A stretch of 64,000 nt of DNA from an uncultured Clostridium sp. GTDB taxonomy: Bacteria; Bacillota; Clostridia; TANB77; CAG-465. Positions 9,766 to 54,941 of this stretch are shown one piece after another (position 1 is the stretch's first letter; each line of letters opens with the position of its first letter). The translations under genes and the position numbers were made by a program. The stretch is taken from positions 46,976 to 110,975 of the forward strand of contig CANAIR010000002.1 of assembly GCA_947361355.1 (NCBI GenBank), written 5' to 3'. The notes below the pieces were generated by a model, which was given only the letters and a program-made list of their open reading frames with translations, ran no database searches and was not told where the DNA came from.

Positions 9766-9793
9766 ATTTATTTTTTTTTTTTGTTGTATATTA

Positions 9794-9826
9794 ATGAGTG
9801 AAGTTTTTCACTCATTTTTTTATATC
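9794..9826 (+). terminator. Rho-independent terminator after the carboxypeptidase gene
   Basis: ATGAGTGAA…TTCACTCAT stem followed by a T-run. Confidence 0.6.
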
Positions 9827-9947
9827 ATTTTATTTATGTATAAAATTAATATAAAATACTGTATTTTAAAACAAATTTCATTTTAATTACATAAATATTA
9901 CAATTATATAACATTTTTGTTTACTTGAATTTTTTTAATAAAAAAAC

Positions 9948-9976
9948 TTGCATTCAAAAAAAATAAGCGATATAAT
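9948..9976 (+). promoter_or_regulatory. Sigma-A-type promoter (TTGCAT-17-TATAAT) upstream of the pilus-like operon
   Basis: Near-consensus -35 and -10 hexamers with a 17-nt spacer, about 45 nt upstream of the cpaB-like start. Confidence 0.45.
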
Positions 9977-10023
9977 ACAAAAAGGATTAACATTTTTAAT
10001 AAAAAAATTGGAGGTTGAAACAT

Positions 10024-11055
10024 ATGATAGGAATGAGTCAAATTAAAAAGAAGACTTTACAAGGTGTAGCAATTGGAGGTGCAATAGGAGTTGTTGGTAT
10101 AGGACTAACTTTGTTTTTCTCATATAAAACAATAAAGTCATATCAAGATGGTAGTAATAAAAATTACCAAAAAAATTATACAGCAAATGTTGCTGTGCTA
10201 ACAAAAGATGTTATTCAAGGTGAAATAATTACAGATGATATGATAAAAAATGTAAGAATTAATAAAAGTACAGTTCCAGAGGGTGCACTTACATCTGGCG
10301 AGATAGCAGGTAAAGTAGCAAAATATAGTATTGCTGCAAATGTACCTCTTATAAGTTCAATGATTACAGAAGAGATTATTGATTCTGATATAAGAAGCCA
10401 AGAAGTAAATACAATAGTTATGCCTAGTGATTTAAATGTTGGTGATAGTGTTGATATTAGAATAATGTATCCTAATGGTACTGACTATATAGTTTTAGCT
10501 CAAAAAAGAGCAGAACAAATTGAAGGTCAAACTATGTGGTTACAATTATCTGAGGATGAGAGACTATTATTAAATTCAGCTATTGTAGATTCATTTTTAA
10601 CTCAAGGTACAAAATTATATGCAACAAAATATGTTGATCAAGATGCTCAAATAAAAGCTTCTGATGATGCAGCAGATAAAGCAGAAGGTTATGTATCTGA
10701 AAGAATAAAGGATAAAATGACTGATATACAAAGTGCAGATGAAGTAGAATTAACTACTATAATATTTGATTTAATTAAAGAGTATAAAAATTTTGCTACA
10801 ACTGTAACAAGAACAAAAGAAAATTACCAACCAAATACATATGTAATGGATGCAATGAAAAATAATACTAATATTTTAGAACAAGCAAAATCAAAATTAA
10901 GTGAGGATGCTAGAACAAATATTGAAAATGCTATAAAAGATTATGCTAATTCTAATGAAGAAGAATATAGTAATGTTGTATCTGGTGCAAAAGAGGCTAT
11001 AAGTAATCAAAAAACTCAAAGAGATCAATTAGTTAATGGAACAGTTGTAGAATAA
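10024..11055 (+). CDS. cpaB: Flp/Tad pilus assembly protein CpaB/RcpC-like (N-terminal TM + SAF domain)
   Basis: N-terminal TM segment, then a SAF-domain-like region (…VAVLTKDVIQGEIITDDMI…VPEGALTSGEIAGKVAKYSIAANVPLISSMI…). Long acidic C-terminal region. GGAGG RBS precedes the ATG at 10024. Confidence 0.65.
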   Translation: MIGMSQIKKKTLQGVAIGGAIGVVGIGLTLFFSYKTIKSYQDGSNKNYQKNYTANVAVLTKDVIQGEIITDDMIKNVRINKSTVPEGALTSGEIAGKVAKYSIAANVPLISSMITEEIIDSDIRSQEVNTIVMPSDLNVGDSVDIRIMYPNGTDYIVLAQKRAEQIEGQTMWLQLSEDERLLLNSAIVDSFLTQGTKLYATKYVDQDAQIKASDDAADKAEGYVSERIKDKMTDIQSADEVELTTIIFDLIKEYKNFATTVTRTKENYQPNTYVMDAMKNNTNILEQAKSKLSEDARTNIENAIKDYANSNEEEYSNVVSGAKEAISNQKTQRDQLVNGTVVE

Positions 11056-11083
11056 TAATAAAGACAATATAGGAGGAATATAA

Positions 11084-11797
11084 ATGCAAGTAATAGGGTT
11101 GATAGGTTATGTTGATAAATATGATTTTGTTATAAACCTTGCCAAGACAATAAATATTATGGGAAAATCTGTCTTAGTAGTTGATGCTACGTTGGATAGA
11201 AAATTAAAATATGTTATACCATCATTAAGTAATGTTGGTAGATCATATATAACTCAATATAATGATATAGATTTTGCTTTAGGTTTTGATAGTATGCACG
11301 ATGTAGAAAACTATTTAGCTGAACAAAGTATAAATATAGGATTATATGATTTTATATTAATTGATATAGACAGTCCAAAATCATTTGAATTCTTTAGGAC
11401 AAGAGGTATGGATAAAAGATGTTTCTTTATTGATTCTAGTGTTTTATCTGTTGCTAAAAATAAAGATATAATAAAGGCTGTTAGAATATATAGTCAAGAT
11501 CCTGATAATATACAAATGACAAAAATATCATATAAAGGAGTAATGTCAAGGGCAGCAGAAGATTACTTTAAAAAACAAATTGAAGAATATGGAATTAAGT
11601 GGCAAGAGCCAGAATATGAATTTCCACAGGATGAAATGGATAAAATTGCTGATATTGATTCACAATATAGTGGTTTAATTGATGTAAAAAAACATACTAA
11701 AATGTATTTAAATTCATTATCTGACTTAACTGCTGAAATTATAGGAGATGTTACTAGTAAGGAAGTAACAAAGGCAATTAAAAGGAGGAGAGACTAA
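11084..11797 (+). CDS. Degenerate ParA/MinD-fold protein (TadZ/CpaE-like, no intact Walker A)
   Basis: Strong RBS. Sits between cpaB-like and tadA-like genes. ParA-like beta-alpha pattern (VIGLIGYVDK…, DFILIDIDSP…) but lacks the GKGGxGK[ST] P-loop. Confidence 0.45.
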   Translation: MQVIGLIGYVDKYDFVINLAKTINIMGKSVLVVDATLDRKLKYVIPSLSNVGRSYITQYNDIDFALGFDSMHDVENYLAEQSINIGLYDFILIDIDSPKSFEFFRTRGMDKRCFFIDSSVLSVAKNKDIIKAVRIYSQDPDNIQMTKISYKGVMSRAAEDYFKKQIEEYGIKWQEPEYEFPQDEMDKIADIDSQYSGLIDVKKHTKMYLNSLSDLTAEIIGDVTSKEVTKAIKRRRD

Positions 11798-12612
11798 TGG
11801 CAAGAGTAGTATTTTGGAGTCCTGATGCTACTATGACAGGTAATACTCATACTGCAGTAGCTGTTAGTAGTTTAATGGGCATTGAGCATAAGGCAAGCTG
11901 CCTTTTAATGCAAGGTAATTTTGATTCTAAAAAAATAGAATCTTCATATACAATGTATGAACAATTAAGAGAAAGTGGAGCTTTGGAAAATGCAAACTTG
12001 GGTGTAAGTGCATTAATTAGATTGGTAACAAGTAATAAACTTACATCTGATGCTATACAAAACTATGCAAAACCCGTTTTAAAGGGAAGGTTAGATTTAC
12101 TTTATGGTATGACAGCCAAAGATAAAGACGGATATAAAGATTTGGTAAATAATTTGCCATATATTACAAGAAAAGCGGCAGAAATATATGATTTAGTATT
12201 TATCGATTTGCCAAAAACAGCAAATTATAAATATATAAAAGATACTTTGGCTGATTCTGAAATAGTTGTTTGTACAGTTAATCAAGACGTTGTAAAACTA
12301 GATCAATTTTTTGAAAAAGTTCAAAAGATAGATGAACTTAAAGAAAAAAATGTTATTTATGTGATTTCAGATTATGAAAATAAATCTAAATTTAATATAT
12401 CAAATATTAAAATAAAATATAGAATAAAAGATGAAATATATGCTGTACCACATAATTTCGTTTTTACAGATGCCTGTAATTCAGGAGATGTAATAAATTT
12501 CTTTTACAAAAATATCAATTCAGATCCAAAAGATTATAATGGATATTTTATAAGTAAAACAAATGAAATAGTTTCAAAAATATTTGAATTATCAAAGTTA
12601 AAAGATAATTAG
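11797..12612 (+). CDS. Degenerate ParA/MinD-fold protein (TadZ/CpaE-like pseudo-ATPase)
   Basis: VVFWSP…TGNTHTAVAVSS replaces the deviant Walker A. DLVFIDLP is Walker-B-like. Translationally coupled, with its ATG overlapping the upstream stop. Confidence 0.5.
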   Translation: MARVVFWSPDATMTGNTHTAVAVSSLMGIEHKASCLLMQGNFDSKKIESSYTMYEQLRESGALENANLGVSALIRLVTSNKLTSDAIQNYAKPVLKGRLDLLYGMTAKDKDGYKDLVNNLPYITRKAAEIYDLVFIDLPKTANYKYIKDTLADSEIVVCTVNQDVVKLDQFFEKVQKIDELKEKNVIYVISDYENKSKFNISNIKIKYRIKDEIYAVPHNFVFTDACNSGDVINFFYKNINSDPKDYNGYFISKTNEIVSKIFELSKLKDN

Positions 12613-12641
12613 TTTTTGAATAAAAATAAAAAAGAGGTGAT

Positions 12642-14537
12642 ATGATGACAGTTGCATTTATATTTAATATCTTATTAATACTTTTACTTATCGGTTTAGT
12701 TGTTAGCTTTTTTGTATACAAAATAAAAAAATCCGATAGTAAAGAAGCAACTGATGAATTATCAAGAGAAAGAGAAAAATACAGCATTGAAAAAATGAAA
12801 GCATTCATAAAGAAACAATTTGATGAGATTACTAGAATGAATTTGTATGATCTTGCACTTTCAGAAGAAGAATTTGAAAGAAGAAAGAATGTAAAATATG
12901 AGCTAAAAAAAGCTTTACGTGGTGCAGGATATGCAGATAAAAATGACAAAAAGTATGTTAAAACTTTAATGTTTGATTTATTAAGAAATAATTATAAAGT
13001 AAACAGTTTTAATATAAATAATGCAATTCCTTTTGATAATTTTGACTCTTTATCTTCACAAGATAAATTTGAGATATTAATGCACGTTTATAAAAAAGCA
13101 TATAAAACTGATGCTTTAACACAAATAATTACTAAATATAATTTGGATATGCCAAAATATGAGTTTGATCCTGAGGTCCCATCTTATGTTATTACTTCAA
13201 GAGAAATAGATCAAATATTTGCTGCTGAAATAACAGATGATACGCTAACTTTTGATGATAAACTTGAAATAGTAGTACAAAGAATTTATCAAGAATATAA
13301 GGGTTATAGTGTAGTAGATGATATTCGTGATATGAATATAGATGGTGTATCTGGTGGTGTATCTGGTATTCCACCTTCATTCCTTGATCAACTTACTGAT
13401 ATGGATGACTATTTAGAACAAATGGAAGGTAGAAAGCTACCAATGTCATATGATAGTGTATGGATATTCTATAAAGGTAAAGCTACGTATTTATCTTTTC
13501 TATCGTTTGGTAGTGAAACAGAATTAAAAAGAGTATGTCAAAATATATATAAATATAATAATCCAGGTCAATTGTCTGAATCTGTTGGTTATAAAATAAA
13601 CGAAATGAAAGATGGTTCCCGTGTAGTTGTACTTAGACCTAATTTTTCTGAGTCTTGGGCATTCTTCGTAAGAAAATTTGCTCCACCTACTCTTATATCT
13701 GCAGAACAATTGCTTGTTCATGAAAATAAAGAAACAGTAATTGAATTATTAAAATATTTAATAAGAGGTGCAAGAGTAACAGCTATAACTGGTGAGCAAG
13801 GTTGTGGTAAAACAACACTTCTAATGGCTATAATGAAATATTTATATCCTACAATTACAATTCGTGTACAGGAAACTGCATTTGAATTGCATTTAAGAAA
13901 AATTTACCCATACCACAATATCTTATCTTTAAGAGAAACTGATACAATTAATGGTCAAGAAGGTCTTGATGTTCAAAAGAAAACAGATGGTGGTGTTAAC
14001 ATCCTTGGAGAGGTTGCAACTGATCCCGTTGCTGCTTGGATGATTCAAATGGCTCAGGTTGCATCTAAATTTACATTATTTACGCACCATGCTAAAACAT
14101 TCCCTAATTTAATAACTGCACTTAGAAACTCGCTTTTGAAAATAGGTATGTTTAATTCTGAAAATGTTGCAGAAGTGCAAGTTGTACAAGTTATAAACTT
14201 TGATATACATTTAAAAAGAGGTACTGATGGTACAAGATATATTGAAAGAATAACTGAGTGTATTCCACTTGAAAAAGAATTTAAATATAATAATGACTAT
14301 AAAAAAGTAAATGACATGGATAAAAAAATGGATAAGTTTATGGATAATGCTGTTGAATATTTTACTCATATGACTCAAACTAGTAATTATACATATAAAA
14401 ATATAGTTGAATTTGTAGATGGTGCTTATGTATTTAGAAATCCTATTAGTGAAGAGAATATAAAAGCAATGAGAGACAATATGTCACCAGAAGATGTTAA
14501 ATCATTTGACAACTTCATAGATATGGCATGGAGGTGA
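12642..14537 (+). CDS. tadA: Tad/CpaF-family secretion ATPase (TadA-like) with an N-terminal TM helix and ~350-aa extension
   Basis: Walker A AITGEQGCGKTT. CpaF-like motifs DGSRVVVLRPNFSESWAFFVRKF and NILGEVATDP…FTHHA. A hydrophobic N-terminal segment precedes a long, poorly conserved domain. Confidence 0.85.
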   Translation: MMTVAFIFNILLILLLIGLVVSFFVYKIKKSDSKEATDELSREREKYSIEKMKAFIKKQFDEITRMNLYDLALSEEEFERRKNVKYELKKALRGAGYADKNDKKYVKTLMFDLLRNNYKVNSFNINNAIPFDNFDSLSSQDKFEILMHVYKKAYKTDALTQIITKYNLDMPKYEFDPEVPSYVITSREIDQIFAAEITDDTLTFDDKLEIVVQRIYQEYKGYSVVDDIRDMNIDGVSGGVSGIPPSFLDQLTDMDDYLEQMEGRKLPMSYDSVWIFYKGKATYLSFLSFGSETELKRVCQNIYKYNNPGQLSESVGYKINEMKDGSRVVVLRPNFSESWAFFVRKFAPPTLISAEQLLVHENKETVIELLKYLIRGARVTAITGEQGCGKTTLLMAIMKYLYPTITIRVQETAFELHLRKIYPYHNILSLRETDTINGQEGLDVQKKTDGGVNILGEVATDPVAAWMIQMAQVASKFTLFTHHAKTFPNLITALRNSLLKIGMFNSENVAEVQVVQVINFDIHLKRGTDGTRYIERITECIPLEKEFKYNNDYKKVNDMDKKMDKFMDNAVEYFTHMTQTSNYTYKNIVEFVDGAYVFRNPISEENIKAMRDNMSPEDVKSFDNFIDMAWR

Positions 14538-14541
14538 TAAT

Positions 14542-16599
14542 ATGGTTACAAACATAGCAATAGGTTTAGTAGCAATCTCCGTAATTGGTCTTCTTGCACT
14601 TTTTATTTACTATAAAATTGTTCGTCACAAATATATAAAAAATTCTGCTCTTTATTCTAAAGATAGACTTGTAGTAAAAGAAAAGAAAAGTAATAAAGAC
14701 ACATTAGATAAAATATATCAAATCGTATATTTAACTTTTGTAAAAATGCCTATTATAAAATACTATACAAAAAAGACAAGATTAAAATTAGAAATGACAA
14801 ATGATTATACAGAATATGAGTTAAGAAGAAGAACTGGTAAGACTATGTTAACTGCTATTATATTTATGTTTGTATCATTATTTGTATTCTTAAATTTAGT
14901 TAATGATTTGTATATGTCATTAATTGTTATAGTAGGTGTATTAATAGTAACAGAAAAGGTAATAGATATAGGAATTACTTCTGTATCGGAAAAAATACTT
15001 AAACAAATGCCAGAAGCTTTTACTAGTATAAGGCATGCCTTTCATGAGCATGGAATGGTAGAAGAATCTTTTAATTCTGCTATTGATGATTTAGGTGAAA
15101 GGGAGGTAGTACCACAACTTAGAAGAATTAAGGAAGCTATGCTTGCTGAAAATCCTGAAATAGAACTTGAAAGATATTATGACACAGCACCAAATAGATT
15201 TTTAAAATTATTTGCTGGAGTATCATATTTAACTTTGGATTTAGGTGATAGAAAAGTTGATGGAACATCTGTGTATCTTAAAAACTTAAATAATATATTA
15301 AGTGAGATACATCTTGAAATCTTAAAAAGAGATAAAATTAATTATATGTTTAGAAGCTTAACTGTAATTGCAGTAGCTCCACTTGTAGCGATAAAACCTT
15401 TGCAAACATGGGCTGAATCAAACTTTCCAGCACTACTTAATTTTTATGATAGTAGTATAGGATTTTTTATGCAGTCTTTGATTATAGTTTCAATATTTAT
15501 TTCATATTTAATGTTAAGAATTGTTAAAGAAGACGTTGAAGAAATAAAATTTGATAGGGTTTCTGGAGTTAAATGGCAAGAAAAAGTCTATAAATATCGT
15601 TTTGTAAAGATTATAGTTGATGCTTTTAAATCAAGAGAAAATACAAGAAAAAGAAGAAATGAAGAAACACTTATTAAAAATACAAATGCGTATCTTACAA
15701 TAGAATGGTTATATGTTAATAAACTAACAGCTGCATTAATAGCTTTTCTATTATCATTATTACTTTTATTAAATATGCAGCATATTGATGTTTCGGGGGT
15801 ATATAATAAGATTAGTGATGAGTTTTTATCTTTTGGTAAGCTTAGTCCTACACAACAAGCAGCAGCTGATGCTATAAATAGAACAGACAATGAATATATT
15901 GAAAAATATAAAGGCAAAAAAGTAACAAAAGAGCAAATAGCAAGCGAAATGGTTGATCCTGTTACTGGTGAAGTTGACTCAACAGCTGTTGATAGAATAT
16001 ATACAAAAATAGAAACAGTTAAAAATTCGTACTTAAAATTTTGGCAAGTACTTACAGCTTTGATAATTGCAGTAGTAGCATATTTTATTCCAAGTCTTGT
16101 ATTAGTTATAAAAAATAAAATAAGAGAAATGGAAAAAGAAAATGAAATTATGCAATTCCAATCAATAATATTGATGCTTATGTATATCGATAGAGTTGAT
16201 GTTCAAACCATTCTTGAATGGTTAGCAAGATTTTCATATGCTTTTAAAGAACCAATTTCTACTTGTCTAAACAATTATGAATCTGGAGCAGAAATAGCAC
16301 TTGATGAGTTAAAAGAAGCTGTACCATATAAGGATTTCCAAAGAATAGTAGAACAATTAATTTCTGCTGTTGAAAGAATACCTGTTAGAGCTGCTTTTGA
16401 TGAACTTGAAACTGAAAGAGCTTATTTCCATGAAAGAAGAAAAGAGGGAAATGAAAGATTGGTTCAAAAGAAAGTTACAATAGGAAAAGTACTTGGATTT
16501 GCTCCAATGGTATTACTTATAGGTGGTTATTTAGTAGCACCACTTATGATAGTAAGTATAATGCAAATGATGAGTTACTTTAGTAACATGTCATTTTAA
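14542..16599 (+). CDS. Polytopic membrane protein, probable TadB/TadC (T2SS-F domain) fusion
   Basis: 685 aa with multiple TM helices separated by cytoplasmic helical domains, sited immediately after the tadA-like gene. The T2SSF assignment comes from position and architecture, not from a recognised motif. Confidence 0.55.
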   Translation: MVTNIAIGLVAISVIGLLALFIYYKIVRHKYIKNSALYSKDRLVVKEKKSNKDTLDKIYQIVYLTFVKMPIIKYYTKKTRLKLEMTNDYTEYELRRRTGKTMLTAIIFMFVSLFVFLNLVNDLYMSLIVIVGVLIVTEKVIDIGITSVSEKILKQMPEAFTSIRHAFHEHGMVEESFNSAIDDLGEREVVPQLRRIKEAMLAENPEIELERYYDTAPNRFLKLFAGVSYLTLDLGDRKVDGTSVYLKNLNNILSEIHLEILKRDKINYMFRSLTVIAVAPLVAIKPLQTWAESNFPALLNFYDSSIGFFMQSLIIVSIFISYLMLRIVKEDVEEIKFDRVSGVKWQEKVYKYRFVKIIVDAFKSRENTRKRRNEETLIKNTNAYLTIEWLYVNKLTAALIAFLLSLLLLLNMQHIDVSGVYNKISDEFLSFGKLSPTQQAAADAINRTDNEYIEKYKGKKVTKEQIASEMVDPVTGEVDSTAVDRIYTKIETVKNSYLKFWQVLTALIIAVVAYFIPSLVLVIKNKIREMEKENEIMQFQSIILMLMYIDRVDVQTILEWLARFSYAFKEPISTCLNNYESGAEIALDELKEAVPYKDFQRIVEQLISAVERIPVRAAFDELETERAYFHERRKEGNERLVQKKVTIGKVLGFAPMVLLIGGYLVAPLMIVSIMQMMSYFSNMSF

Positions 16600-16671
16600 A
16601 AGAGGTATAAACATTATAGTTTGATAATGTTGTACATATATTAAAACATAAAATAAGGGGGGAATTTTATT

Positions 16672-17163
16672 ATGGATAATGCTCAAAAGGCAATCATGAT
16701 TGGTGTTGGTTTGTTTATTACTATTATTGTTATTGCAGCTGTTATGCTTATAACAGGTATGGGACAAGATATGTTACAATCAGGTCAACAACAAGTATCT
16801 AACATTTCTGCTAGTTTACAAGCGCAACTAACTTCAGATTTTGATGGAACAACTGTAACTGGTGCACAAGTTATAACAGCAGTTAAAAGATATTATCAAG
16901 ATGATACAATGGCAATATATGTTATAAATGGTACTAATCAAAAAAGTTATGGTAAAATAAATGCTACTGGTTATGCAAAAGGAACATATGACCAAGTTAC
17001 ATCAGTTGCAGCAAATAATTCACCAGAAAAAGTTGGAACTTTAACTGATACATCTGCTGCTAATACAGCAAATTATGTACCAAACTCAGCTAAATATAAA
17101 GCTAACATTTTAAAGATAAAAGGAACTAATGATGTTGTTGGTATTTGTTTTGAAAAAGACTAA
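16672..17163 (+). CDS. Pilin-like protein (short polar leader + N-terminal hydrophobic helix), paralog group A
   Basis: MDNAQKAIMIGVGLFITIIVIAAVML…; motif …FDGTTVTGAQVITAVKRYYQDD… is shared with the ORFs at 17354 and 18593. Strong RBS. Confidence 0.5.
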   Translation: MDNAQKAIMIGVGLFITIIVIAAVMLITGMGQDMLQSGQQQVSNISASLQAQLTSDFDGTTVTGAQVITAVKRYYQDDTMAIYVINGTNQKSYGKINATGYAKGTYDQVTSVAANNSPEKVGTLTDTSAANTANYVPNSAKYKANILKIKGTNDVVGICFEKD

Positions 17164-17353
17164 TCAACAAACATATCATTTTTATTATTACAACAAGGTA
17201 TATATTAAATTATATACCTTTTGTAATATAATTATTATAAATATAATTTAAATTATAATTTTATATATATTAAAATATCTATTATTTATATGTTTTAAAA
17301 ATTACTCATATCAATGAATAATTTTTAAAGCACATATTTTAAGGAGGAATATT

Positions 17354-17812
17354 ATGGATGAAAGTTCACTTATGCGAGCCTTAACAGTTGGTGTTGGTGT
17401 ATTTATAGCAATAGCAACAATAACAGCAGTATTATCGTATTATAATACTGCAAAAGATATGGTACAAGCAGTTGGTACTGGGGCAGACTTTGATAGAGAA
17501 TATTCAAATTATATAGAAAATACATTATTAAAAACACAAAATGTTTCATATATAACTGGAAATGATGTTAAAAATTTACTTAACTATTTTTATAAAGATG
17601 AAAAAGTTCAAATAAATATAGCATTAATAACACCATTGTATTTGGATAATGATGATAATTTATTATCATCAAATTTATCTGGAAATAATGTGAATAATCA
17701 TGAAAAGTTATATAATTCATTGAGTTCTAAAATAGTACCTACACAAAAATTTAAATTGGAAAGACAAAATACTTCTGGAAAATTAATTATAAATTTAAAT
17801 GGTATAAAATAA
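17354..17812 (+). CDS. Pilin-like protein, paralog group A
   Basis: MDESSLMRALTVGVGVFIAIATITAVL…; motif …ITGNDVKNLLNYFYKDEK…; strong AGGAGG RBS. Confidence 0.5.
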   Translation: MDESSLMRALTVGVGVFIAIATITAVLSYYNTAKDMVQAVGTGADFDREYSNYIENTLLKTQNVSYITGNDVKNLLNYFYKDEKVQINIALITPLYLDNDDNLLSSNLSGNNVNNHEKLYNSLSSKIVPTQKFKLERQNTSGKLIINLNGIK

Positions 17813-17823
17813 AGGAGTAGATT

Positions 17824-18573
17824 ATGGAGGATACATTACAAAGAGTATTTGCAATTATAATTGCTGTTGTTATATTCTTTTTATTACCACTATATATAGC
17901 TTTTGAAAAAAAAGATGATATTTCCTATTCACTTGCTTTAAGAATTACTACAAATTTTGTAGATAATGTGAAAAGCAAAGGATATTTAAGTAAGGAAATG
18001 TATGACAATTTCATTTCAAGGTTATCAATAACTGGTAATGTATATGATATAAAACTTGAACATATAGCGAAAAAATATAATCCAGTTATATATTCTTATG
18101 ATAATGACTATAAACAAATAAAAGAAAAATTTGATTATAATACTTATAAAGAGCAGTTTGAAAATGGTCAGATTAACTCTGCTACTGGAATTTATAAAAA
18201 CTTAGTATTAGCTTATGAGCTATATGAAGTTAGATATAATGAATCAAATATTATAGAGGCATTAGATTTGAATGAACAAATTATAAGACGTGTAGAAGAA
18301 GGGACATCTGAGGCTGAAAATTATAAGTCTGTAAACAGAGATAATATTCCTGTTATATCTGGAATATATCGAACAGATGAAAATAAAGCCTTATATCCTA
18401 TGAGTAAAGGTGATGAATTTACAGTTATTATAAAAAATACAAATACTACTGTTGCGAGTATATTATTTAATACTTTAACTTTTGGGGCTAATACAGGTAA
18501 TGATACTAAGGTATATATTAATTATGGCGGTTCTATACAAAGTGAAGAATATAGAAAAACAGTATTAGAATAA
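17824..18573 (+). CDS. Pilin-like protein, paralog group B (homologous to the N-terminal ~200 aa of the 715-aa protein)
   Basis: N-terminal hydrophobic helix. …TTNFVDNVKSKGYLSKEMYDNFISRLSITGNVYDIKLE… aligns to the 19480 ORF (…TTNFVDEVINCGYIDQQMYDNFIQKLSITGNLYDIQLE…). Confidence 0.5.
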   Translation: MEDTLQRVFAIIIAVVIFFLLPLYIAFEKKDDISYSLALRITTNFVDNVKSKGYLSKEMYDNFISRLSITGNVYDIKLEHIAKKYNPVIYSYDNDYKQIKEKFDYNTYKEQFENGQINSATGIYKNLVLAYELYEVRYNESNIIEALDLNEQIIRRVEEGTSEAENYKSVNRDNIPVISGIYRTDENKALYPMSKGDEFTVIIKNTNTTVASILFNTLTFGANTGNDTKVYINYGGSIQSEEYRKTVLE

Positions 18574-18592
18574 CTATTGGAGGTGATTTATT

Positions 18593-18985
18593 TTGGATTT
18601 GGCAGCTAATAAAGCTATAACAATTGCTACCGCAGTTTTTATAACTATTATAATAACATCTGGTGTGTTATTTTCAATTGGGCAAATGCAAAGTATATAT
18701 TCACAAGTGTATGAAACAGATATTAATATTCAAAATAGATTTGGAGAATTTGAATCATTTGATAATACTGAAAAGACAGGTATAGATGTAATGAATGTGT
18801 CTAAAAAGTACAGAGATTCAGATTTAGTAAATATATACATTTTAGGAAGCAGTGAAAAATTAAATACTTCTGCTGGTATTAATCGTCTTCCATCAAGGCT
18901 TGGTACAAATCCAGGTGAGGTATTATATAAAAGTACTGTAAAAGATGTAAATGGAAGAATAACAATAGAATTTACAAAAAAATAG
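18593..18985 (+). CDS. Pilin-like protein, paralog group A (TTG start)
   Basis: MDLAANKAITIATAVFITIIITSGVLF…; GGAGG RBS 9 nt before the TTG. Confidence 0.45.
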   Translation: MDLAANKAITIATAVFITIIITSGVLFSIGQMQSIYSQVYETDINIQNRFGEFESFDNTEKTGIDVMNVSKKYRDSDLVNIYILGSSEKLNTSAGINRLPSRLGTNPGEVLYKSTVKDVNGRITIEFTKK

Positions 18986-18997
18986 AGGTGAAATATT

Positions 18998-19462
18998 ATG
19001 GAAGATTCAGCATTTGATGCGTTATACACAGGTACATATGTATTAGTATTTATTATAGCTCTTACTATAACACTTTATTTGTTTAACTCTATTATAGACT
19101 TTTCAGACTTAGCATATGAATTTAATACAAAAGTTGAAGACAATTCTACCATAATTGATGCTCCAGTTGAGGCAAATAGATTACTTTCTGGTGAAGAAGT
19201 ATTATCCTATTATTACAATTATGTTAAGCATGATTTATATTCCGAAAAGGTATCACCAGTTAATTATAACGTAAATATACAAATTGGTAGAACTACAAAC
19301 GAGCTTGCTGGTATGTCACTTTTAGAAATTTCACAAGCAATCGGAATGGAAAATAAGTTTATTTTAAGATACAAAGGCGCAAAATATGGCGATGATGGTG
19401 TAAAAAATATAGATATAGATATAGTGAAAGCAACACAAGAACAAATAGATGCTTTAGTTTAG
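18998..19462 (+). CDS. Pilin-like protein (N-terminal hydrophobic segment)
   Basis: MEDSAFDALYTGTYVLVFIIALTITLYLF…; AGAGGTGA RBS. Confidence 0.45.
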   Translation: MEDSAFDALYTGTYVLVFIIALTITLYLFNSIIDFSDLAYEFNTKVEDNSTIIDAPVEANRLLSGEEVLSYYYNYVKHDLYSEKVSPVNYNVNIQIGRTTNELAGMSLLEISQAIGMENKFILRYKGAKYGDDGVKNIDIDIVKATQEQIDALV

Positions 19463-19479
19463 AAAGGTGTGAAATATAA

Positions 19480-21627
19480 TTGAAGGATAATTTAAGTATT
19501 ATTGTAACTATGCTTGTTTTTGTTATTTTGATAGTTATATTTCCATTATATAACTACTTTGAAAGACAAGATGATATGTCATATAATATTGTTTTAAAGT
19601 CTACGACAAACTTTGTAGATGAAGTTATAAATTGTGGTTATATAGATCAACAAATGTATGATAATTTTATTCAAAAATTATCAATAACAGGAAATTTATA
19701 TGATATCCAGTTAGAAGCCCATAAAAGAACGTATACTAAAGATCCATATAATATGCGCTTAGATACTTTTATTGAGCAGTATAATATTGATTATAATAAT
19801 GATATTTTTGATCAAGGTACTGGTGTTACTAAACAAAGTAATGTAAGTGTAGATAATAAAGTGTTAAAAAATGGCGTTTATTACCTAAATGTTGGAGATC
19901 AAATATATGTAAAATTGAAAAATAGTGGAACTACTATGGCTGGCGCAATATTTAATATAATAGTTCCAACTTCTAAGCAAGAAAGAGTTACAGTAAATTA
20001 TGGTGGAATTATAAAGAATAACGCATGGGAAAAACAAGATATTAGTAATTTGTTTCAAAAAGACATTTATACAGAAATATATGTAGATAAGGCAGTTACA
20101 CCTGGACTTACTAATAAAATTAATGATAGACCTACATATTCATTAAATGAAAGTAGTGAAATAAAAGTAGTAGTTAAAATATTAAATTACGAAAAATCCC
20201 AGGAATCAAATATAGCAAGTATTTTAAAAGACAATTTAAAAATAACAGGATTTGAATCTAAAAAAACAATATTGCCTACAAGTGTAATAAAAAGTGCAAG
20301 CTCACCAGAGTGGGTAGCAACATATAATGTAAATAGTATTTCATCTTCTGTTGAAGAATACTTTGGTGGAAATACATATAAAACATGTCAAGTAGAATTA
20401 GAACCTGATTTAATTCAAGGAAACTATTTTAAAAATAGTTTAACCTCATCTGATACATTTGTAATAAAGAAAAATAACACAGATACTGCTACACCTGATA
20501 TTACAGGTGCATATCTAAATGGTAGTTCTTCAGTTGTAAATAACATTGAAATTGGCAGTACTGTAATTTATTATTTGAATTATTATGATTCTACATTAAT
20601 TGCATCAGCAAATGAAATGAAAAACTATATATCAGCTACTAATTTTACTTATGATGACTTGGTTGTTCAACATGATAGTGGTTCCAAAAGATTTAAGCTT
20701 ACTTTTTCAAATGTAAGCGGTGAACCAGATGTTAGAATAAAAATAAATGTTGCAGGTGATTGGGCCCAATACTCACAAGGTGGTACAATAAAAAAAGTAG
20801 GGACACTTTCATCTCGTGAATCAACTCTTAAGTTTTTACCAAAAAATTATACAACACCTGGTATATATAAATTTGTTATACCTTCTGATGGTAGATATAG
20901 ATTAGAAGTTGTAGGTGCAAATGGTGGTGGAAATGCTAACTATTCCTCAAATAGGGGAAGTAGAGGCGGAAAAGGTGGAAGAACCGCTGGTACTATTGCA
21001 CTTACCAAAGGGCAAGTTTTATACATTGTTGTTGGTGGCTCAGGTAAGTCTGCAATTTCTGGCTCTGTTGGTACAGGTGGTTATAATGGTGGTGGAAACG
21101 GTACTAAATCATTAACTGATAACACAAAATTTGGTTTTGGTGGCGGTGGAGCTACTGATATAAGATTGTCAGATACTAATATCTCTAGTCCAATTGATGG
21201 CTTAAGCAAGAGAATTATTGTTGCTGGCGGAGGCGGAGGCGCTGACGATATTGATATTGATGGAACAACAAATTCTGGAGTACTTGGTAGTATAGATGAT
21301 GGTTCAGGAGGATTTGGAGCTGGAGGATTAAATAATGGTGGTTATGGTTTTGTTGATGGTTCAGTATCAGGTGGTGCTAAACCAGGAACAACAACATCAG
21401 GATTTAGTCTAGGAATAGGACAAAATGCTTCTTCTAGTAATGATGCTGGAGGTGGAGGCGGAGGCTATTATGGTGGCTTTGCATCTCCAACTTCGAATTC
21501 AAATTCAGGTGGAGCTGGTGGTTCGGGATACATAGCAGCAGGATTTATAGACATTGTAGGCGCTAATGGAGTAAATTCATCAACTATTGGAAATGGAAGT
21601 GCTTCTATAACATATATGGGAAAGTAA
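19480..21627 (+). CDS. Large pilin-like protein with a ~270-aa glycine-rich (polyglycine-motif) C-terminal domain; candidate tip/adhesin subunit
   Basis: TTG start after AAAGGTG. N-terminal hydrophobic helix and paralogy to the ORF at 17824. The C-terminal domain is full of spaced GGxGG/GGGGG motifs (GANGGGNAN, GGKGG, GFGGGGAT, AGGGGGADD, DAGGGGGGYYGG, SGGAGGSGY). Confidence 0.55.
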   Translation: MKDNLSIIVTMLVFVILIVIFPLYNYFERQDDMSYNIVLKSTTNFVDEVINCGYIDQQMYDNFIQKLSITGNLYDIQLEAHKRTYTKDPYNMRLDTFIEQYNIDYNNDIFDQGTGVTKQSNVSVDNKVLKNGVYYLNVGDQIYVKLKNSGTTMAGAIFNIIVPTSKQERVTVNYGGIIKNNAWEKQDISNLFQKDIYTEIYVDKAVTPGLTNKINDRPTYSLNESSEIKVVVKILNYEKSQESNIASILKDNLKITGFESKKTILPTSVIKSASSPEWVATYNVNSISSSVEEYFGGNTYKTCQVELEPDLIQGNYFKNSLTSSDTFVIKKNNTDTATPDITGAYLNGSSSVVNNIEIGSTVIYYLNYYDSTLIASANEMKNYISATNFTYDDLVVQHDSGSKRFKLTFSNVSGEPDVRIKINVAGDWAQYSQGGTIKKVGTLSSRESTLKFLPKNYTTPGIYKFVIPSDGRYRLEVVGANGGGNANYSSNRGSRGGKGGRTAGTIALTKGQVLYIVVGGSGKSAISGSVGTGGYNGGGNGTKSLTDNTKFGFGGGGATDIRLSDTNISSPIDGLSKRIIVAGGGGGADDIDIDGTTNSGVLGSIDDGSGGFGAGGLNNGGYGFVDGSVSGGAKPGTTTSGFSLGIGQNASSSNDAGGGGGGYYGGFASPTSNSNSGGAGGSGYIAAGFIDIVGANGVNSSTIGNGSASITYMGK

Positions 21628-21636
21628 GGTGAAAAT

Positions 21637-22878
21637 GTGAAAATAACAGATTTAGCTTTAGTATTTATTGGAATCATATTACCAATTATAATAGTAGTAT
21701 ATATAAATGTTTCTTTTACAATTAAAGCTCAAGAACAAGAAATGTACTATCAAAATATAATTGATATAGCAGCGCAAGATGCAGCAAATCAAATGAAGGA
21801 AGTCGAAAATGATGATTCAAATGTAGATTATGGATATTCTGGAGTAGATAACCAAAAAATAAGTGTTAATGCACAAATAGCTGTTGACACATTTTTAAAT
21901 AATTTATATAATAACTTTAATATAAAAGGTAATGAGGCGGCGCAAAAATATTTACAACTTTTTGTACCTGCAATTGCAATTATAGATTATGATGGTGTCC
22001 AAATATCATCAGTTGAATCCTCAAAAGATATGACAGATACAGAAGTACAAAGTGGAAAAATAAATACATATAATAGTGATTGGAGTGTTACAAAGCATGT
22101 ATTAAAACCAAAAAGATACTATACATATACTTATTCTATAATTAGAGAAGGTGGAGCAAGCGGAATTGAATATAAAATGGTAGATGGAATATCTTCTAAT
22201 CCAAATGCTGTTTCATATCATGAAATAGAATTTACTATGGATGATTATTTAACACATAGACAGTATGAAAAAAATGATACTAAAGAAAGCCAGCCAGAAA
22301 GTTTTTATTTAACAGATGGTAAGTATAATGATAGTCTTGTAAGTGGTATAAGAGCTAGTGAAGCGTCAAATGCAGCTTCATTTAAACAGGAAGTAATACA
22401 AAAACTTTCAAGTAAACGTGAAGATACAATTGCAAATACTTTAATAAAAGAAATGACATATGCAACAAATGCTAATAACTCATATGCTAGAAGTGCAGGA
22501 ATTACGTATAATTTCTCATTTCCAACAACAACACATGAAGAATTATATGGAACAATAAAAAATGTAGGATTTATGGCCTTTGTACAGGGGTTATCAGTTG
22601 GTACAAAATATTTGAACACAAAAGCATACGGACTAAATAACTTAGGTCTTGCAACAAGATACTATTTTACAATTCCTAATATAGATTCAAAATATAAGCT
22701 TAATTTATATCATAAAGATACAACTTGTCCAGAGTATGTGGTTTCTAAGGTAGATGATATATCACCTAGATATGCTATAACAAAACAACAAGCTGCATCA
22801 ATGAAAGTTGGATGTACAATTAATGATATAGAATTAACATTCCAAGGATTTTATCCTTGCCCTATATGTAGTCCATAA
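21637..22878 (+). CDS. N-terminally anchored protein with a Cys-rich C-terminus (CPEY…GCT…CPICSP); last gene of the pilus-like operon
   Basis: GTG start 5 nt after AAGGTG. Hydrophobic N-terminal helix. Four Cys residues lie in the last ~60 aa. Confidence 0.5.
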   Translation: MKITDLALVFIGIILPIIIVVYINVSFTIKAQEQEMYYQNIIDIAAQDAANQMKEVENDDSNVDYGYSGVDNQKISVNAQIAVDTFLNNLYNNFNIKGNEAAQKYLQLFVPAIAIIDYDGVQISSVESSKDMTDTEVQSGKINTYNSDWSVTKHVLKPKRYYTYTYSIIREGGASGIEYKMVDGISSNPNAVSYHEIEFTMDDYLTHRQYEKNDTKESQPESFYLTDGKYNDSLVSGIRASEASNAASFKQEVIQKLSSKREDTIANTLIKEMTYATNANNSYARSAGITYNFSFPTTTHEELYGTIKNVGFMAFVQGLSVGTKYLNTKAYGLNNLGLATRYYFTIPNIDSKYKLNLYHKDTTCPEYVVSKVDDISPRYAITKQQAASMKVGCTINDIELTFQGFYPCPICSP

Positions 22879-23140
22879 TATGTATAAATATATTAAAAGT
22901 AAAGGAGAGTATTTAATTACTCTTCTTCATTTTTATATAATTACTTGTTATTTAAGTATTAAAACTAAAAGGTAAGAAAATTCAAAATATAGGTTATATA
23001 TTATAAAAATAGAATAAAATATTAAATATAAGATGAAAATAAAATTAATTATATTGTAAAAAAAATAATTTTGATGTAAAATATAAATAGATTAATAAAA
23101 AAATATGTAAACAAGGGGAGAGAAAAGTATGATAAAACTA

Positions 23141-25585: not shown

Positions 25586-26614
25586 TTGAGAAAATATAAT
25601 TTTTTATTCTATAATTTTATGTGTTTTTTAATCATAATTACAATTGCCCTTTTTATAATAAATTTGTTAAGTGAAATAGGTAATAATAAAAAAGAAGAAG
25701 AAAAAGTATTAGAGCAAAAAGAAGAAAAACATACAATAGAATATAAAGCTAATGAGACTATAAGAATAAAGTTTTCAAAAACAGGGGAAATAGTAGCTAT
25801 GGATATGAATGATTATCTAAGAGGAGTAGTTCCATCTGAAATGTCTCCAAGTTATGAAATAGAAGCATTAAAAGCGCAAGCATTGGTAGCTAGAACATAC
25901 ACATATAAAAAAATAAGTGGAGGTGGCGAAGGTCAAGGCGCTGATATGTGTGATAATTTTGCTCATTGTCAAGCTTTTTATACAAAAGAAAAGTTATTTG
26001 AAATTTGGAGTAGAAAAGGTTATGACGAAAAAACTATTTTTGAATTTTGGGATAAAGTAAATGAGGCAATTGTTTCTACACAAAATGAAATTATAACATA
26101 TAATGGTGAATGTATAAAAGCTTTTTTTCATGCTAGTAGTCCACAAAAAACTGAAGATATAAGTCAAATATGGGGTGGAGAGACTTTACCGTATTTAAAA
26201 TCAGTTGAAAATATTGAGGACGAAGGTTACGTAAATAGGACTAGTAAAGTTGAAATTTCATTTGAGGATTTTTTGAATAAATTAAAAGAAAATAATAAAG
26301 AATTTAATGAGGTAACTAATGAAAATATAAAAGATACTAAAATAAGTGATTATACAATAAGTGGAAGAGTAAAAAATATTGAGGTATCAGGAATTAAAGT
26401 TAATGCTGAGAAGCTTAGAACTATGTATGGTCTTAAATCTACAAATTTTACAATAGAAATAATAGATAATAAGATCATATTTAATGTAATAGGCTATGGT
26501 CATGGAGTTGGTCTTAGTCAAGTAGGCGCAAATTATTATGCAAAAAGTGGAATGAAATATGATGAAATTATAAAACATTATTATACAGGTGTTGAAATAA
26601 AAAAATTAAATTAA
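25586..26614 (+). CDS. spoIID: Stage II sporulation protein D (SpoIID lytic transglycosylase)
   Basis: SpoIID-family signature (…LRGVVPSEM…EALKAQALVARTYTY…). Synteny spoIID-spoIIQ-spoIIID-mbl as in Clostridia. TTG start. Confidence 0.85.
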   Translation: MRKYNFLFYNFMCFLIIITIALFIINLLSEIGNNKKEEEKVLEQKEEKHTIEYKANETIRIKFSKTGEIVAMDMNDYLRGVVPSEMSPSYEIEALKAQALVARTYTYKKISGGGEGQGADMCDNFAHCQAFYTKEKLFEIWSRKGYDEKTIFEFWDKVNEAIVSTQNEIITYNGECIKAFFHASSPQKTEDISQIWGGETLPYLKSVENIEDEGYVNRTSKVEISFEDFLNKLKENNKEFNEVTNENIKDTKISDYTISGRVKNIEVSGIKVNAEKLRTMYGLKSTNFTIEIIDNKIIFNVIGYGHGVGLSQVGANYYAKSGMKYDEIIKHYYTGVEIKKLN

Positions 26615-26635
26615 ACAAATGAAAAGGAGAATTGT

Positions 26636-26893
26636 ATGAAAATTAGATTCAATAATATTATAAAAAATAAAGAGGCATTAAAAAAAGATAGATTAAATGG
26701 TGAAATGAGTAAAAAAGAATATATTAAAGAAAAATCTTCAAATAATAATACAAAAAAGAATAAAGAAATAATAAATAGAAACGTTTTGAAAGAAGAAAAA
26801 CAAAGGAATATATCTGATACTTATGTAACACCAATATTTAAAGTATATAAAAATGGACGGAGACATTATAAAATATGTACCAAATGTTGTTAA
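26636..26893 (+). CDS. Small Lys-rich ORF with strong RBS, overlapping the start of the M23 peptidase gene; possibly the true 5' end of the spoIIQ-like gene (frameshift)
   Basis: AAAAGGAGA RBS; overlaps the next ORF by 41 nt in a different frame. Confidence 0.3.
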   Translation: MKIRFNNIIKNKEALKKDRLNGEMSKKEYIKEKSSNNNTKKNKEIINRNVLKEEKQRNISDTYVTPIFKVYKNGRRHYKICTKCC

Positions 26894-27792: not shown

Positions 27793-28047
27793 TTGTTAGA
27801 TATAGATGAAAGAGCAAAAGTGCTTGCAACATATATTATTGAGACAAAAAGTACAGTTAGACAAACAGCAAGAAAGTTTAATATAAGTAAGTCTACTGTG
27901 CATAAAGATATTTCAGAAAGATTACAAAAAGTTAATCCTTCTCTTGCTAGCGAAGCTAAGAAAGTTTTAGAAATAAATAAAGCTCAAAGGCATATAAGAG
28001 GTGGGCTTGCGACTAAGATGAAGTATCAAAAAATAAAAGTAGATTAA
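27793..28047 (+). CDS. spoIIID: Stage III sporulation protein D (HTH transcription factor)
   Basis: Close match to B. subtilis SpoIIID (…KSTVRQTARKFNISKSTVHKDISERL…HIRGGLATKMKY…). TTG start after GGGGAG. Confidence 0.85.
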   Translation: MLDIDERAKVLATYIIETKSTVRQTARKFNISKSTVHKDISERLQKVNPSLASEAKKVLEINKAQRHIRGGLATKMKYQKIKVD

Positions 28048-48745: not shown

Positions 48746-48748
48746 AAA

Positions 48749-49141: not shown

Positions 49142-49159
49142 TGGGGGTGTAAAGATAAA

Positions 49160-49789: not shown

Positions 49790-49847
49790 TTAAAATCATT
49801 TAAATTAAATAGTGTGTGTAATCAGAGCACACTAGAAGGAGGAAAAA

Positions 49848-50795: not shown

Positions 50796-50814
50796 TTAAG
50801 GGAGGAAAAGTAAA

Positions 50815-54878: not shown

Positions 54879-54941
54879 ATATATTATAATTTAGAATAAA
54901 GAGTCACCATTTAACATATCATGTTGTGTGGTGATATTTTT

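Follow-up and report, generated by a model that had tools for sequence, protein, structure and literature searches.

A Tad-related operon for a putative type IV filament in an uncultured gut Clostridium of the TANB77 lineage and its relatives on Firmicutes plasmids

Gene content of the operon

The window analyzed here, a stretch of 64,000 nucleotides from an uncultured Clostridium sp. (assembly GCA_947361355.1, contig CANAIR010000002.1, positions 46,976 to 110,975 of the forward strand), carries an operon of 12 co-directional, tightly packed open reading frames (ORFs; g01 to g12) on the plus strand between positions 10015 and 22878. According to the ORF map, the encoded proteins consist of 346, 237, 271, 631, 685, 163, 152, 249, 130, 154, 715 and 413 amino acids. 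The order is that of a SAF-domain protein, two proteins of ~240 to 270 amino acids, an ATPase of 631 amino acids, a polytopic protein of 685 amino acids and seven proteins of 130 to 715 amino acids (g06 to g12), each of which showed a single N-terminal hydrophobic helix in a hydrophobicity screen. The gaps between the genes range from -1 to 29 nt, except for those between g05 and g06 (72 nt) and between g06 and g07 (190 nt). A first-pass annotation, made by a model without database searches, had described a tightly spaced, single-strand operon of thirteen genes; strand and spacing agree with our map, but the count does not, as the sole additional ORF from 9948 is a TTG ORF of 32 amino acids, which overlaps the promoter and the ribosome-binding site. 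Several TTG and GTG starts had been noted as well, and these are likely for g09, g11 and g12, whose orthologues have their starts there as well. Gene calls on other contigs place the probable start of g01 at ATG 10024 (343 amino acids) and that of g04 at ATG 12645 (630 amino acids). As discussed below, the probable product of the operon is a filament machine related to Tad (type IVc-like), and the host is a monoderm, spore-forming Clostridia bacterium of the gut from the TANB77 lineage.

The putative motor is encoded by g04 (12642..14537, plus strand), a secretion ATPase of the CpaF/TadA family of 630/631 amino acids, which possesses a transmembrane helix at residues 1 to 27 and an N-terminal extension of ~250 amino acids. 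A phmmer search against PDB sequences matched residues 275 to 547 of g04 to CpaF (8rkd/9e24; E = 7e-8, 273 residues), and the alignment covers the Walker A (GEQGCGKTT), Asp-box, Walker B and His-box regions. No PDB match to archaeal FlaI or GspE was found with phmmer at E <= 1, the ComGA model reached 14 bits only, and the score with the NCBIfam model TIGR03819 (26.6 bits) is below the cut-off of 373. Across the 80 species described below, g04 is 60 to 91% identical, compared to ~25 to 84% for the other genes; its core shares 39 to 70% identity with the ATPases of the plasmid cassettes and at most 28% with canonical CpaF. Judging from these alignments, g04 is a true but distant relative of CpaF/TadA, so that the family assignment of the first-pass annotation stands for a distant member.

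The adjacent gene g05 (14542..16599, plus strand) encodes an inner-membrane platform protein of 685 amino acids with ~8 transmembrane helices, for which a fused pair of TadB/TadC-like (T2SSF-type) domains is predicted. The protein has no match in Pfam, NCBIfam or the PDB sequences, and UniRef names several of its homologs "GspF domain-containing", though the T2SSF model misses them. In profile-profile comparisons, the N-terminal half aligns with TadB (E = 4.8e-4, 175 columns) and TadC (E = 0.015, 187 columns) and the C-terminal half with TadC (E = 1.5e-4, 169 columns) and TadB (E = 0.059, 144 columns), with motifs and terminal pairs of transmembrane helices in register. This signal is seen only with reference alignments of five sequences; the TadB, TadC and TadZ/CpaE references are small sets from annotated Tad loci on plasmids. 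A comparison of the g05 profile with single sequences of E. coli HofC and of Rhizobium TadB and TadC using hhalign was not significant, and a search for an internal repeat, half against half, was negative (E = 0.53). The AlphaFold2 model, built with 106 sequences, is all-helical (predicted local distance difference test score, pLDDT, 78.9; predicted template modelling score 0.71). A Foldseek search of this model against the PDB returned nothing below E = 0.27, and unrelated helical bundles score like the model in the same search. Kim et al. found with Foldseek that the two halves of the platform resemble TadC and TadB (PMC11680825). Together, our profile comparison and the published Foldseek result support the view that g05 is a fused platform of the TadB+TadC type. 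The earlier description of a TadB/C-like membrane protein therefore fails if it is taken literally, as a match to the T2SSF model, and is retained at the level of the profiles.

The order of the two halves differs between the two analyses. In Table 1 of Kim et al., the first half is TadC-like and the second half TadB-like (PMC11680825), whereas our profile comparison favours the reverse, TadB-like followed by TadC-like. The order matters because Denise et al. (2019) derive TadB and TadC from the fission of an archaeal platform with two domains, the first of which is TadC-like and the second TadB-like (PMC6668835); it is relevant to the question of an ancestral, archaeal-like fusion (C then B) versus a secondary one (B then C). 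The archaeal order was considered for g05 and not adopted, given the result of our own comparison.

The first three genes of the operon likewise point to the Tad family. The SAF-domain protein g01 (10015..11055, plus strand) is a CpaB/RcpC-like bitopic protein with one N-terminal transmembrane helix; it scores 33.1 bits with the Pfam SAF model (cut-off 21), in agreement with its earlier designation as a SAF-domain protein, and is found in 78 of the 80 loci. The small cytoplasmic P-loop protein g02 (11084..11797, plus strand; 237 amino acids) is ParA/MinD-like: its family profile matches MinD (PDB 4v02) in the P-loop region only (E = 0.0015) and, weakly, the TadZ/CpaE set (hhalign, E = 0.018), and residues G8, K12, D34, D94 and D96 are invariant. 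Its counterpart in the study by Kim et al. is gene 928 ("TadZ"), for which structural homology to TadZ was reported (PMC11680825). The following gene, g03 (11797..12612, plus strand), overlaps g02 by 1 nt and encodes a TadZ/CpaE-like ParA-fold protein of 271 amino acids with a degenerate Walker A motif, which lacks the conserved lysine. Its family profile matches the TadZ/CpaE reference set in hhalign (E = 4.6e-5, probability 68%, 229 columns) and MinD (1ion) weakly (E = 0.6), and the match between the g02 and g03 family profiles is weak, too (E = 0.004, probability 8%). Two tandem ParA-fold proteins had been annotated at this position, and this was borne out, with g02 being the weaker of the two cases.

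Four of the seven N-anchored proteins, all encoded on the plus strand, are small. The candidate major pilin g06 (16672..17163; 163 amino acids) starts with the leader MDNAQKA, followed by a hydrophobic helix, and its gene has a strong ribosome-binding site. It is followed by the minor pilin-like proteins g07 (17354..17812; 152 amino acids; leader MDESSLMRA / LTVGVG), a paralogue of g06, g09 (18593..18985; 130 amino acids; TTG start; leader MDLAANKA / ITIA) and g10 (18998..19462; 154 amino acids; leader MEDSAFDA / LYTG), in which an aspartate replaces the lysine or arginine at position -2. The four proteins are mutually paralogous, with g09 sharing 36% identity with g06. Their leader motif, M-[DE]-N-A-x-[KR]-A / [LI], is part of a wider pattern: a leader of seven to nine residues ending in [KR]-A, then [LI][IM][IM][AG][VG][GA] and a hydrophobic helix, occurs in 213 ORFs from 77 of the 80 loci, the commonest leaders being MENASKA and MDNAQKA. 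Position +5 is occupied by valine, glycine or alanine, never by glutamate, and the consensus lacks Gly-1 in 300 of 310 cases as well as Glu5/Tyr6. The leaders of g07 and g09 are conserved in their orthologues, and that of the pilin homolog on the Butyrivibrio plasmid pCY360 reads TKG / L. The first-pass annotation had stated that these leaders contain neither the Flp motif G/XXXXEY nor the type IVa motif G/FTxxE, and neither is present. The leader of the small pilins looks like a class III signal peptide in its layout and would then be nearest to the archaeal type: the residue at -1 is small, the one at -2 basic, and Glu5 is missing. The strongly conserved short leader and hydrophobic helix shared by the small proteins also agree with the earlier reading of seven N-anchored pilin-like proteins as opposed to signal-anchored enzymes. 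Searches of the operon proteins against Pfam and NCBIfam gave no match to Flp, TadE/TadF (PF07811) or DUF4320, and ten divergent pilin-like proteins of other loci had no match in Pfam.

The N-terminus of g06 is the most conserved of the pilin set, and the g06-type gene is repeated in tandem (two or three copies), with the same N-termini and divergent C-terminal parts, in loci L001, L002, L006, L015, L017, L030 and L033; tandem copies of this kind are often seen for exposed filament subunits. In addition, a stem-loop is located 3' of g06 (17182..17231, plus strand; dG = -18.5 kcal/mol, z = -5.3 versus shuffles), in the g06-g07 gap, which is the longest of the operon. Since g06 combines the most conserved N-terminus and the strongest ribosome-binding site with this hairpin and with tandem duplication elsewhere, we infer that it is the major subunit. 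The hairpin could possibly act as a partial terminator or as a stabilizer of the mRNA, thereby raising the stoichiometry of the major pilin.

The three remaining proteins, also encoded on the plus strand, are larger. The N-anchored protein g08 (17824..18573; 249 amino acids) belongs to family 937 of Kim et al., lacks the [KR]-A leader and contains the conserved motif FPLY..FE[KR].DD.SY; orthologues are found in 74 loci and on plasmids. It is 31% identical to the N-terminal 185 amino acids of g11 (E = 8e-29). Accordingly, the N-terminus of g11 (19480..21627; 715 amino acids) is an anchor domain like g08, followed by a middle region and, at the C-terminus, a glycine-rich domain of the ALK/LTK type (residues 469 to 689; PF12810, E = 4.3e-31), which matches the polyglycine-rich protein of the first-pass annotation and makes g11 a candidate adhesin. 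The last gene, g12 (21637..22878; GTG start), encodes an N-anchored protein of 413 amino acids whose orthologue family includes "pilin 938" of Kim et al. With phmmer, hits were obtained in 53 loci, among them those of the L063 type, where the hit is the last gene, and the plasmid homologs have a size of 311 to 344 amino acids. The protein had been labelled cysteine-rich, which does not hold, as there are four cysteines in 413 amino acids; three of them lie within the conserved C-terminal motif YH..C...(35-45 aa)...GFYPCPxCxP (window positions 22720-22878; longer form LYHK..xCPEY). This motif is also present in the orthologues of L001-L057 and of L084 (Butyrivibrio pCY360) and degenerate in other plasmid homologs; its His/Cys3 pattern is reminiscent of small Ada-type zinc-binding domains and is missed by Pfam. 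A different combination of domains was seen in locus L038 (14489-16180), where a protein of 563 amino acids carries the pilin-type leader MEDNATRA / IIIGVG and a C-terminal region that, by eye, is like the formylglycine-generating-enzyme/sulfatase-modifying-factor domain. Thus, the pilin N-terminus seems to be a module joined to varied domains.

Relatives in TANB77 genomes and on plasmids

Using the ATPase as query, the same operon was recovered in 80 species-level genomes, all of them metagenome-assembled genomes of uncultured gut bacteria named "Clostridia bacterium" or "Clostridium sp. CAG:", with one being a closed genome of 1.8 Mb, OZ006973.1 (locus L066). The closest relative is "Clostridium sp. 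CAG:921" with 91% ATPase identity. The kind of relatives and the low GC (guanine plus cytosine) content of the window are indirect evidence for a host of the order TANB77. The full array is syntenic in all 80 genomes, including the carboxypeptidase gene upstream of it, and is therefore not a chance arrangement; the co-occurrence of its genes in other Clostridia, which the first-pass annotation had left to comparative genomics, is evident from this synteny. Kim et al. (Nat Commun 2024;15:10726) studied the uncultured gut order TANB77 and described a cluster of 10 to 14 genes that is conserved in 122 of 129 species (PMC11680825). In the representative HRGM_Genome_2725 (CAG-245 sp000435175), proteins 927 to 938 comprise a CpaB-like protein of 358 amino acids, ParA-like TadZ/CpaE proteins of 231 and 280 amino acids, a TadA/CpaF protein of 640 amino acids with one transmembrane helix, a TadB/C fusion of 693 amino acids with eight transmembrane helices and seven N-anchored pilin-like proteins (PMC11680825). 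The authors assigned a Tad-like pilus based on structural homology and noted that the N-terminus of 938 resembles TadE/PilV (PMC11680825). Furthermore, recombinant 938 activates dendritic cells via TLR4 and improves the response to anti-PD-1 in mice (PMC11680825).

As loci L056-L079 match the published gene lengths and are homologous to the window cluster throughout, the operon of the window can be regarded as another TANB77-type member of the described cluster. The cluster has been in the literature since 2024 and is not a new discovery: the suggestion that the locus encodes a distinct Gram-positive pilus machine was reasonable, but it had already been made in print (PMC11680825). The ORF map and the transmembrane screen, compared with the published Table 1, give the same gene-for-gene architecture, and the hosts are low-GC, small-genome, uncultured gut Clostridia in both cases. 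However, the window belongs to a different sublineage, with an ATPase that is ~60 to 62% identical over its full length to the L056-L079 type and 91% to that of CAG:921. It also has two g08/937-type genes, one of which is extended to 715 amino acids with the glycine-rich domain, and its 938-type protein is shorter (413 versus 621 amino acids). TANB77 is a prevalent order of the gut, the abundance of which tracks the response to checkpoint immunotherapy, and the published work names this cluster and the g12-family protein as candidate effector; what the machine builds is therefore of practical weight. Beyond the study by Kim et al., the present analysis adds the distribution in Firmicutes with culturable hosts, the leader motif, the regulatory repeats and the questions of the peptidase and of the origin of the platform.

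Outside TANB77, a tblastn search found the g05-type platform on 35 plasmids of Firmicutes with sizes of 61 to 543 kb, where it is annotated as "hypothetical". The carriers include Thermobacillus, Cohnella, Paenibacillus, Alkalihalophilus pseudofirmus OF4, Cytobacillus, Sporosarcina, Lysinibacillus (pBsph), C. botulinum, C. argentinense, C. beijerinckii and Butyrivibrio, and in Paenibacillus the gene is also located on multi-Mb contigs, presumably chromosomes. Six plasmids were inspected, namely Thermobacillus pTHECO01 (L081), L. sphaericus pBsph (L082), a C. botulinum plasmid (L083), Butyrivibrio pCY360 (L084) and those of A. pseudofirmus OF4 (L092) and P. polymyxa M1, the latter being pPPM1a (L093). 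The whole cassette recurs on all six: the SAF protein, two ParA-like proteins, an ATPase of ~580 to 650 amino acids, a platform of ~670 to 690 amino acids, a pilin with the leader MxNAxK[AG], a g08-like and a g12-like protein. Judging from these copies, the cassette is not exclusive to TANB77, which contradicts the published claim of exclusivity; in the literature on the carrier plasmids, no description of it was found. In a rough neighbour-joining tree, a long branch that is remote from Rhizobium CpaF holds ATPases from plasmids and TANB77 in mixed order. An exhaustive HMMER profile search of 1.84 billion cluster representatives (50% identity) yielded 1,211 relatives of the platform at E <= 0.001, of which 682 reach 1e-30. 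The best 150 of these 1,211 relatives have the size of the fused platform, in most cases ~640 to 700 amino acids, or are fragments thereof; as far as sequence comparison goes, the fused platform is therefore a coherent family isolated from ordinary TadB/C.

The surroundings of the cassette differ between plasmids. On plasmids of Bacillales, it is preceded by a gene for a protein of ~470 to 480 amino acids, and then genes for SLH/stalk-domain, DUF5704 (~1,000 to 1,200 amino acids) and GGDEF proteins are found. GGDEF and HD-GYP genes flank homologous cassettes on plasmids, in keeping with a surface appendage under the control of cyclic di-GMP. The pCY360 cassette adjoins genes for a type IV coupling protein (T4CP), PrgI and VirB4, that of pTHECO01 adjoins those for a T4CP and a replication-relaxation protein, and on plasmids of C. 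botulinum and Butyrivibrio a cell-wall hydrolase is encoded in or beside the cassette. As the cassette is present in culturable Paenibacillus and Lysinibacillus, the formation of a filament, the cleavage of the leader and the function become testable.

Transcription signals and surroundings of the operon

Position 9948, at which the first-pass annotation had let the operon begin, is the -35 hexamer of a promoter read from the sequence (9948..9976, plus strand), with the -35 element TTGCAT, a spacer of 17 nt and the -10 element TATAAT. It is kept as TTGAtt/TATAcT across eight aligned loci, in which the TTG and TATA.T positions are invariant. The -35 hexamer agrees with TTGACA at three of six positions only, and promoter-like sites are no commoner in this AT-rich DNA than in shuffled sequences, according to a consensus scan. 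The proposed sigma-A-like promoter is thus supported by its conservation across loci and not by its match to the consensus.

About 35 nt upstream of the -35 hexamer, an array of TTACA-like repeats (9876..9913, plus strand) is found, which consists of TTTCA at 9876, TTACA at 9887 and 9898 and TAACA at 9909, with an exact period of 11 nt; its columns are invariant in the alignment of the eight loci. A strict triple-repeat pattern is located 5' of the SAF gene in 39 of 78 loci, with one other occurrence in 1.58 Mb, and a repeat score of at least 13/15 is reached in 62 of 78 loci, compared to 0.23% of random windows. The repeats are absent from the plasmid cassettes. We take the pattern to be like the direct-repeat sites of OmpR/PhoB-type regulators, for instance the PhoP box of B. 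subtilis, which serves as a lead only; the array is a putative binding array for a transcription factor. At the end of the operon, the terminator scan detected an intrinsic terminator (22889..22939, plus strand) with a stem-loop followed by a T-run (dG = -20.2 kcal/mol, z = -4.6). Upstream of the operon lies a gene for a PBP5-type (D-Ala-D-Ala) carboxypeptidase, and this gene is closed by a terminator (9793-9816).

The window is AT-rich, with a GC content of 20 to 33% in 2-kb windows, and that of the operon ranges from ~25% to 33%, the high end being the glycine-rich part of g11. A horizontally acquired island, as could be suspected from composition, was rejected, because the values of the operon sit within the range of the window. 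A scan of positions 1-64000 with Rfam returned no family at the gathering score, including no riboswitch or leader RNA. The label of an endospore-forming, Clostridium-like genome is fair, since the window carries sporulation genes; these are scattered over positions 1070-2649, 25586-27716, 54921-55541 and 59378-60132 and encode YabP, YqfD, SpoIID, an M23 peptidase, SpoIIM and a STAS/anti-sigma kinase pair like SpoIIAA/AB. Visual inspection suggests SpoIIID at 27793-28047 and a block of ribosomal-protein genes and rpoA at ~48374-51336. The window further contains a second, unrelated surface-adhesion system, in which a sortase gene (38628-39236) lies beside that of a protein of 1,257 amino acids (39387-43160) with a thioester domain and ten SpaA/prealbumin-fold repeats, and a further sortase gene is present at 57398-58138.

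Proposed machine, alternatives and comparison with known systems

Based on homologies, gene order, conservation and motifs, the following model can be drawn for the Tad-related filament machine. A hexamer of the CpaF-like ATPase g04, tethered to the membrane by its own N-terminal helix, would drive the single-chain platform g05, which would extract pilin subunits from the membrane and polymerize them through their N-terminal helices. In such a filament, g06 would be the major subunit and g07, g09 and g10 the minor pilins that prime or cap it, whereas g08, g11 and g12 could be larger N-anchored accessory or tip proteins, also with a role in priming or capping, and g11 might serve as adhesin. 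Like TadZ/CpaE, g02 and g03 may position or scaffold the machine, and the CpaB-like g01 is predicted to form an extracytoplasmic collar. Cleavage of the leader would fall to a prepilin peptidase from elsewhere in the genome, unless the proteins are used uncleaved. Transcription would start from the conserved sigma-A-type promoter, with the TTACA array 5' of it probably binding a regulator. Adhesion is the likely function of the operon.

Several results weigh against this reading. No filament has been observed for this family, and TANB77 is uncultured. The N-terminal part of g01 scores 28.9 bits with the CpaB model TIGR03177, below the cut-off of 71, and covers only profile positions 6 to 100; g04 reaches 16.6 bits with Pfam T2SSE and misses the gathering score of 24.9; and neither g05 nor ten of its homologs have a match to Pfam T2SSF (PF00482) at E <= 1. 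The pilin-like proteins lack Glu+5 and the Flp motif, and searches of g06 to g12 against Pfam and NCBIfam found no match except the glycine-rich domain of g11. The AlphaFold2 model of g06, for which the alignment consisted of the four window paralogues only, is a low-confidence one (pLDDT 60), with a helix at residues 3 to 56 and a beta-sheet after it; in Foldseek, it gave only noise. In addition, a hydrophobicity screen of all ORFs in the 64-kb window detected none that resembles a prepilin peptidase, nor did a crude motif-plus-transmembrane screen find one within ~10 kb of the cluster in the 80 genomes. The missed curated thresholds lower the claim of a canonical Tad system, but not the claim that the machine works like one.

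The absence of a prepilin peptidase and of a secretin from the window had been noted before and was confirmed for both by Pfam scans of 32 window ORFs, in which no A24 peptidase and no secretin were found. A secretin is not needed, as the cell is monoderm. The polytopic ORFs of the window encode a diacylglycerol kinase, SpoIIM and presumed permeases of ATP-binding cassette (ABC) transporters, the latter so named from their position beside ABC ATPase genes. The only return of the peptidase screen of the 80 genomes was a holin-family protein with four transmembrane helices (PF04020, E ~1e-10) in three loci. The three holin-family genes belong to one TANB77 subgroup, in which they lie on the minus strand close to where the cluster ends (L036, 14224-14610; L038, 20048-20431; L039, 17432-17857).

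Instead of a long adhesive pilus, the machine might build a short pseudopilus, a piston for the secretion of proteins or the uptake of DNA across the wall in the manner of type II secretion or ComG systems, with g11 and g12 being substrates or wall-spanning parts; its core parts are those of all type IV filament systems. The many minor pilin-like genes per one major pilin and the cell-wall hydrolase in or beside the cassette on the C. botulinum and Butyrivibrio plasmids would fit such a device; however, the ATPase has CpaF, and neither GspE nor ComGA, as its nearest relative, genes like ComEA/ComEC are missing next to the operon, and the tandem copies and rapid divergence of g06 are in keeping with an exposed subunit of a filament, which makes a pseudopilus unlikely. 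A role in sporulation or at the spore surface, for instance in the assembly of spore appendages, is suggested by location, namely by the sporulation genes in the window and the conserved carboxypeptidase gene directly upstream. The promoter looks like a sigma-A-type and not like a sigma-F/E/G/K-type promoter, terminators and unrelated genes separate the sporulation genes from the operon, and the plasmid copies are found without any sporulation context, so that we regard this role as very improbable.

The plasmid copies raise another question, namely whether the cassette builds a mating or conjugation-associated appendage of mobile elements of Firmicutes, such as a Gram-positive pilus for conjugation or for stabilizing mating pairs, of which the TANB77 copy would be a domesticated descendant. 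The same cassette is carried by 35 large plasmids, in pCY360 and pTHECO01 next to transfer-related genes, the pBsph-type plasmids are conjugative by experiment (PMC13239906), and the ATPases from plasmids and TANB77 do not separate in the tree. However, MOB-suite types all 35 carrier plasmids as non-mobilizable, several of them have SLH, DUF5704 and GGDEF neighbours instead of transfer genes, and no experiment ties the cassette to transfer. The TANB77 cluster itself is chromosomal, in conserved synteny with the carboxypeptidase gene and with no relaxase, T4CP or VirB4 genes nearby, and a mating function is therefore quite unlikely. A broader proposal, which we consider doubtful, is that the cassette represents a distinct, Firmicutes-wide branch of type IV filaments that moves between megaplasmids and chromosomes. 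Its hallmarks would be a membrane-anchored CpaF-like ATPase, a single-chain platform with two domains, two ParA-like proteins and a pilin class of its own, which would be defined by the MxNAxKA leader, the lack of Glu5 and the lack of a match to Flp, TadE or type IVa pilins. On plasmids that are conjugative or bear transfer genes, such a branch could serve as a Gram-positive pilus for mating or adhesion; another option is that it has kept the unsplit state of the archaeal type, from which TadB and TadC arose.

Among the known systems, the Tad/Flp pili (type IVc) of Aggregatibacter, Caulobacter (CpaA-F) and Bifidobacterium breve share with the operon a CpaF/TadA-type ATPase, a TadB/TadC-type platform, a TadZ/CpaE-type protein and a CpaB-like SAF protein. 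The Tad system of the monoderm Bifidobacterium also has no secretin, and its peptidase is encoded outside the operon, as would be the case here. The differences concern most components: the platform is one chain of 685 amino acids instead of two of ~300, the ATPase is membrane-anchored, extended and far from canonical CpaF in identity, and there are two ParA-like genes. The pilins have 130 to 230 amino acids and the [KR]-A leader without Glu5/Tyr6, whereas Flp pilins have 50 to 80 amino acids and the G/XXXXEY motif, and TadE/TadF and DUF4320 proteins are missing here. Ordinary Tad-like loci also occur on plasmids of the same phylum. That of B. thuringiensis pBMB67 (L095) encodes a SAF protein, a ParA-like ATPase and a secretion ATPase in the same order as the operon, and that of C. 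botulinum pOsaka2020-1 (L094) encodes a secretion ATPase, with the gene 5' of it annotated as hypothetical. In both, the platform is split into two proteins of ~300 to 360 amino acids, unlike the fused g05, the ATPase is soluble (~470 to 490 amino acids; 25% identical to g04), and tiny Flp-like genes are present; pBMB67, which is typed as conjugative, additionally encodes a DUF4320 protein.

Archaeal type IV pili of the Epd/Aap-like kind, from which Tad was derived by platform fission according to Denise et al. (PMC6668835), share with the operon the [KR]-[AG] end of the leader in front of the hydrophobic helix, the lack of Glu+5, the single-chain platform with two domains and TadZ-like partners. 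The ATPase, however, matches bacterial CpaF and not FlaI in the PDB, and the pilins match no archaeal pilin family of Pfam. Overall, the earlier assignments are right at the level of superfamilies, but every component falls outside the boundaries of the curated families. For pilus biology, the operon would provide a strongly diverged relative of Tad, with no peptidase gene in its cluster, non-Flp pilins, a tethered motor and a fused platform.

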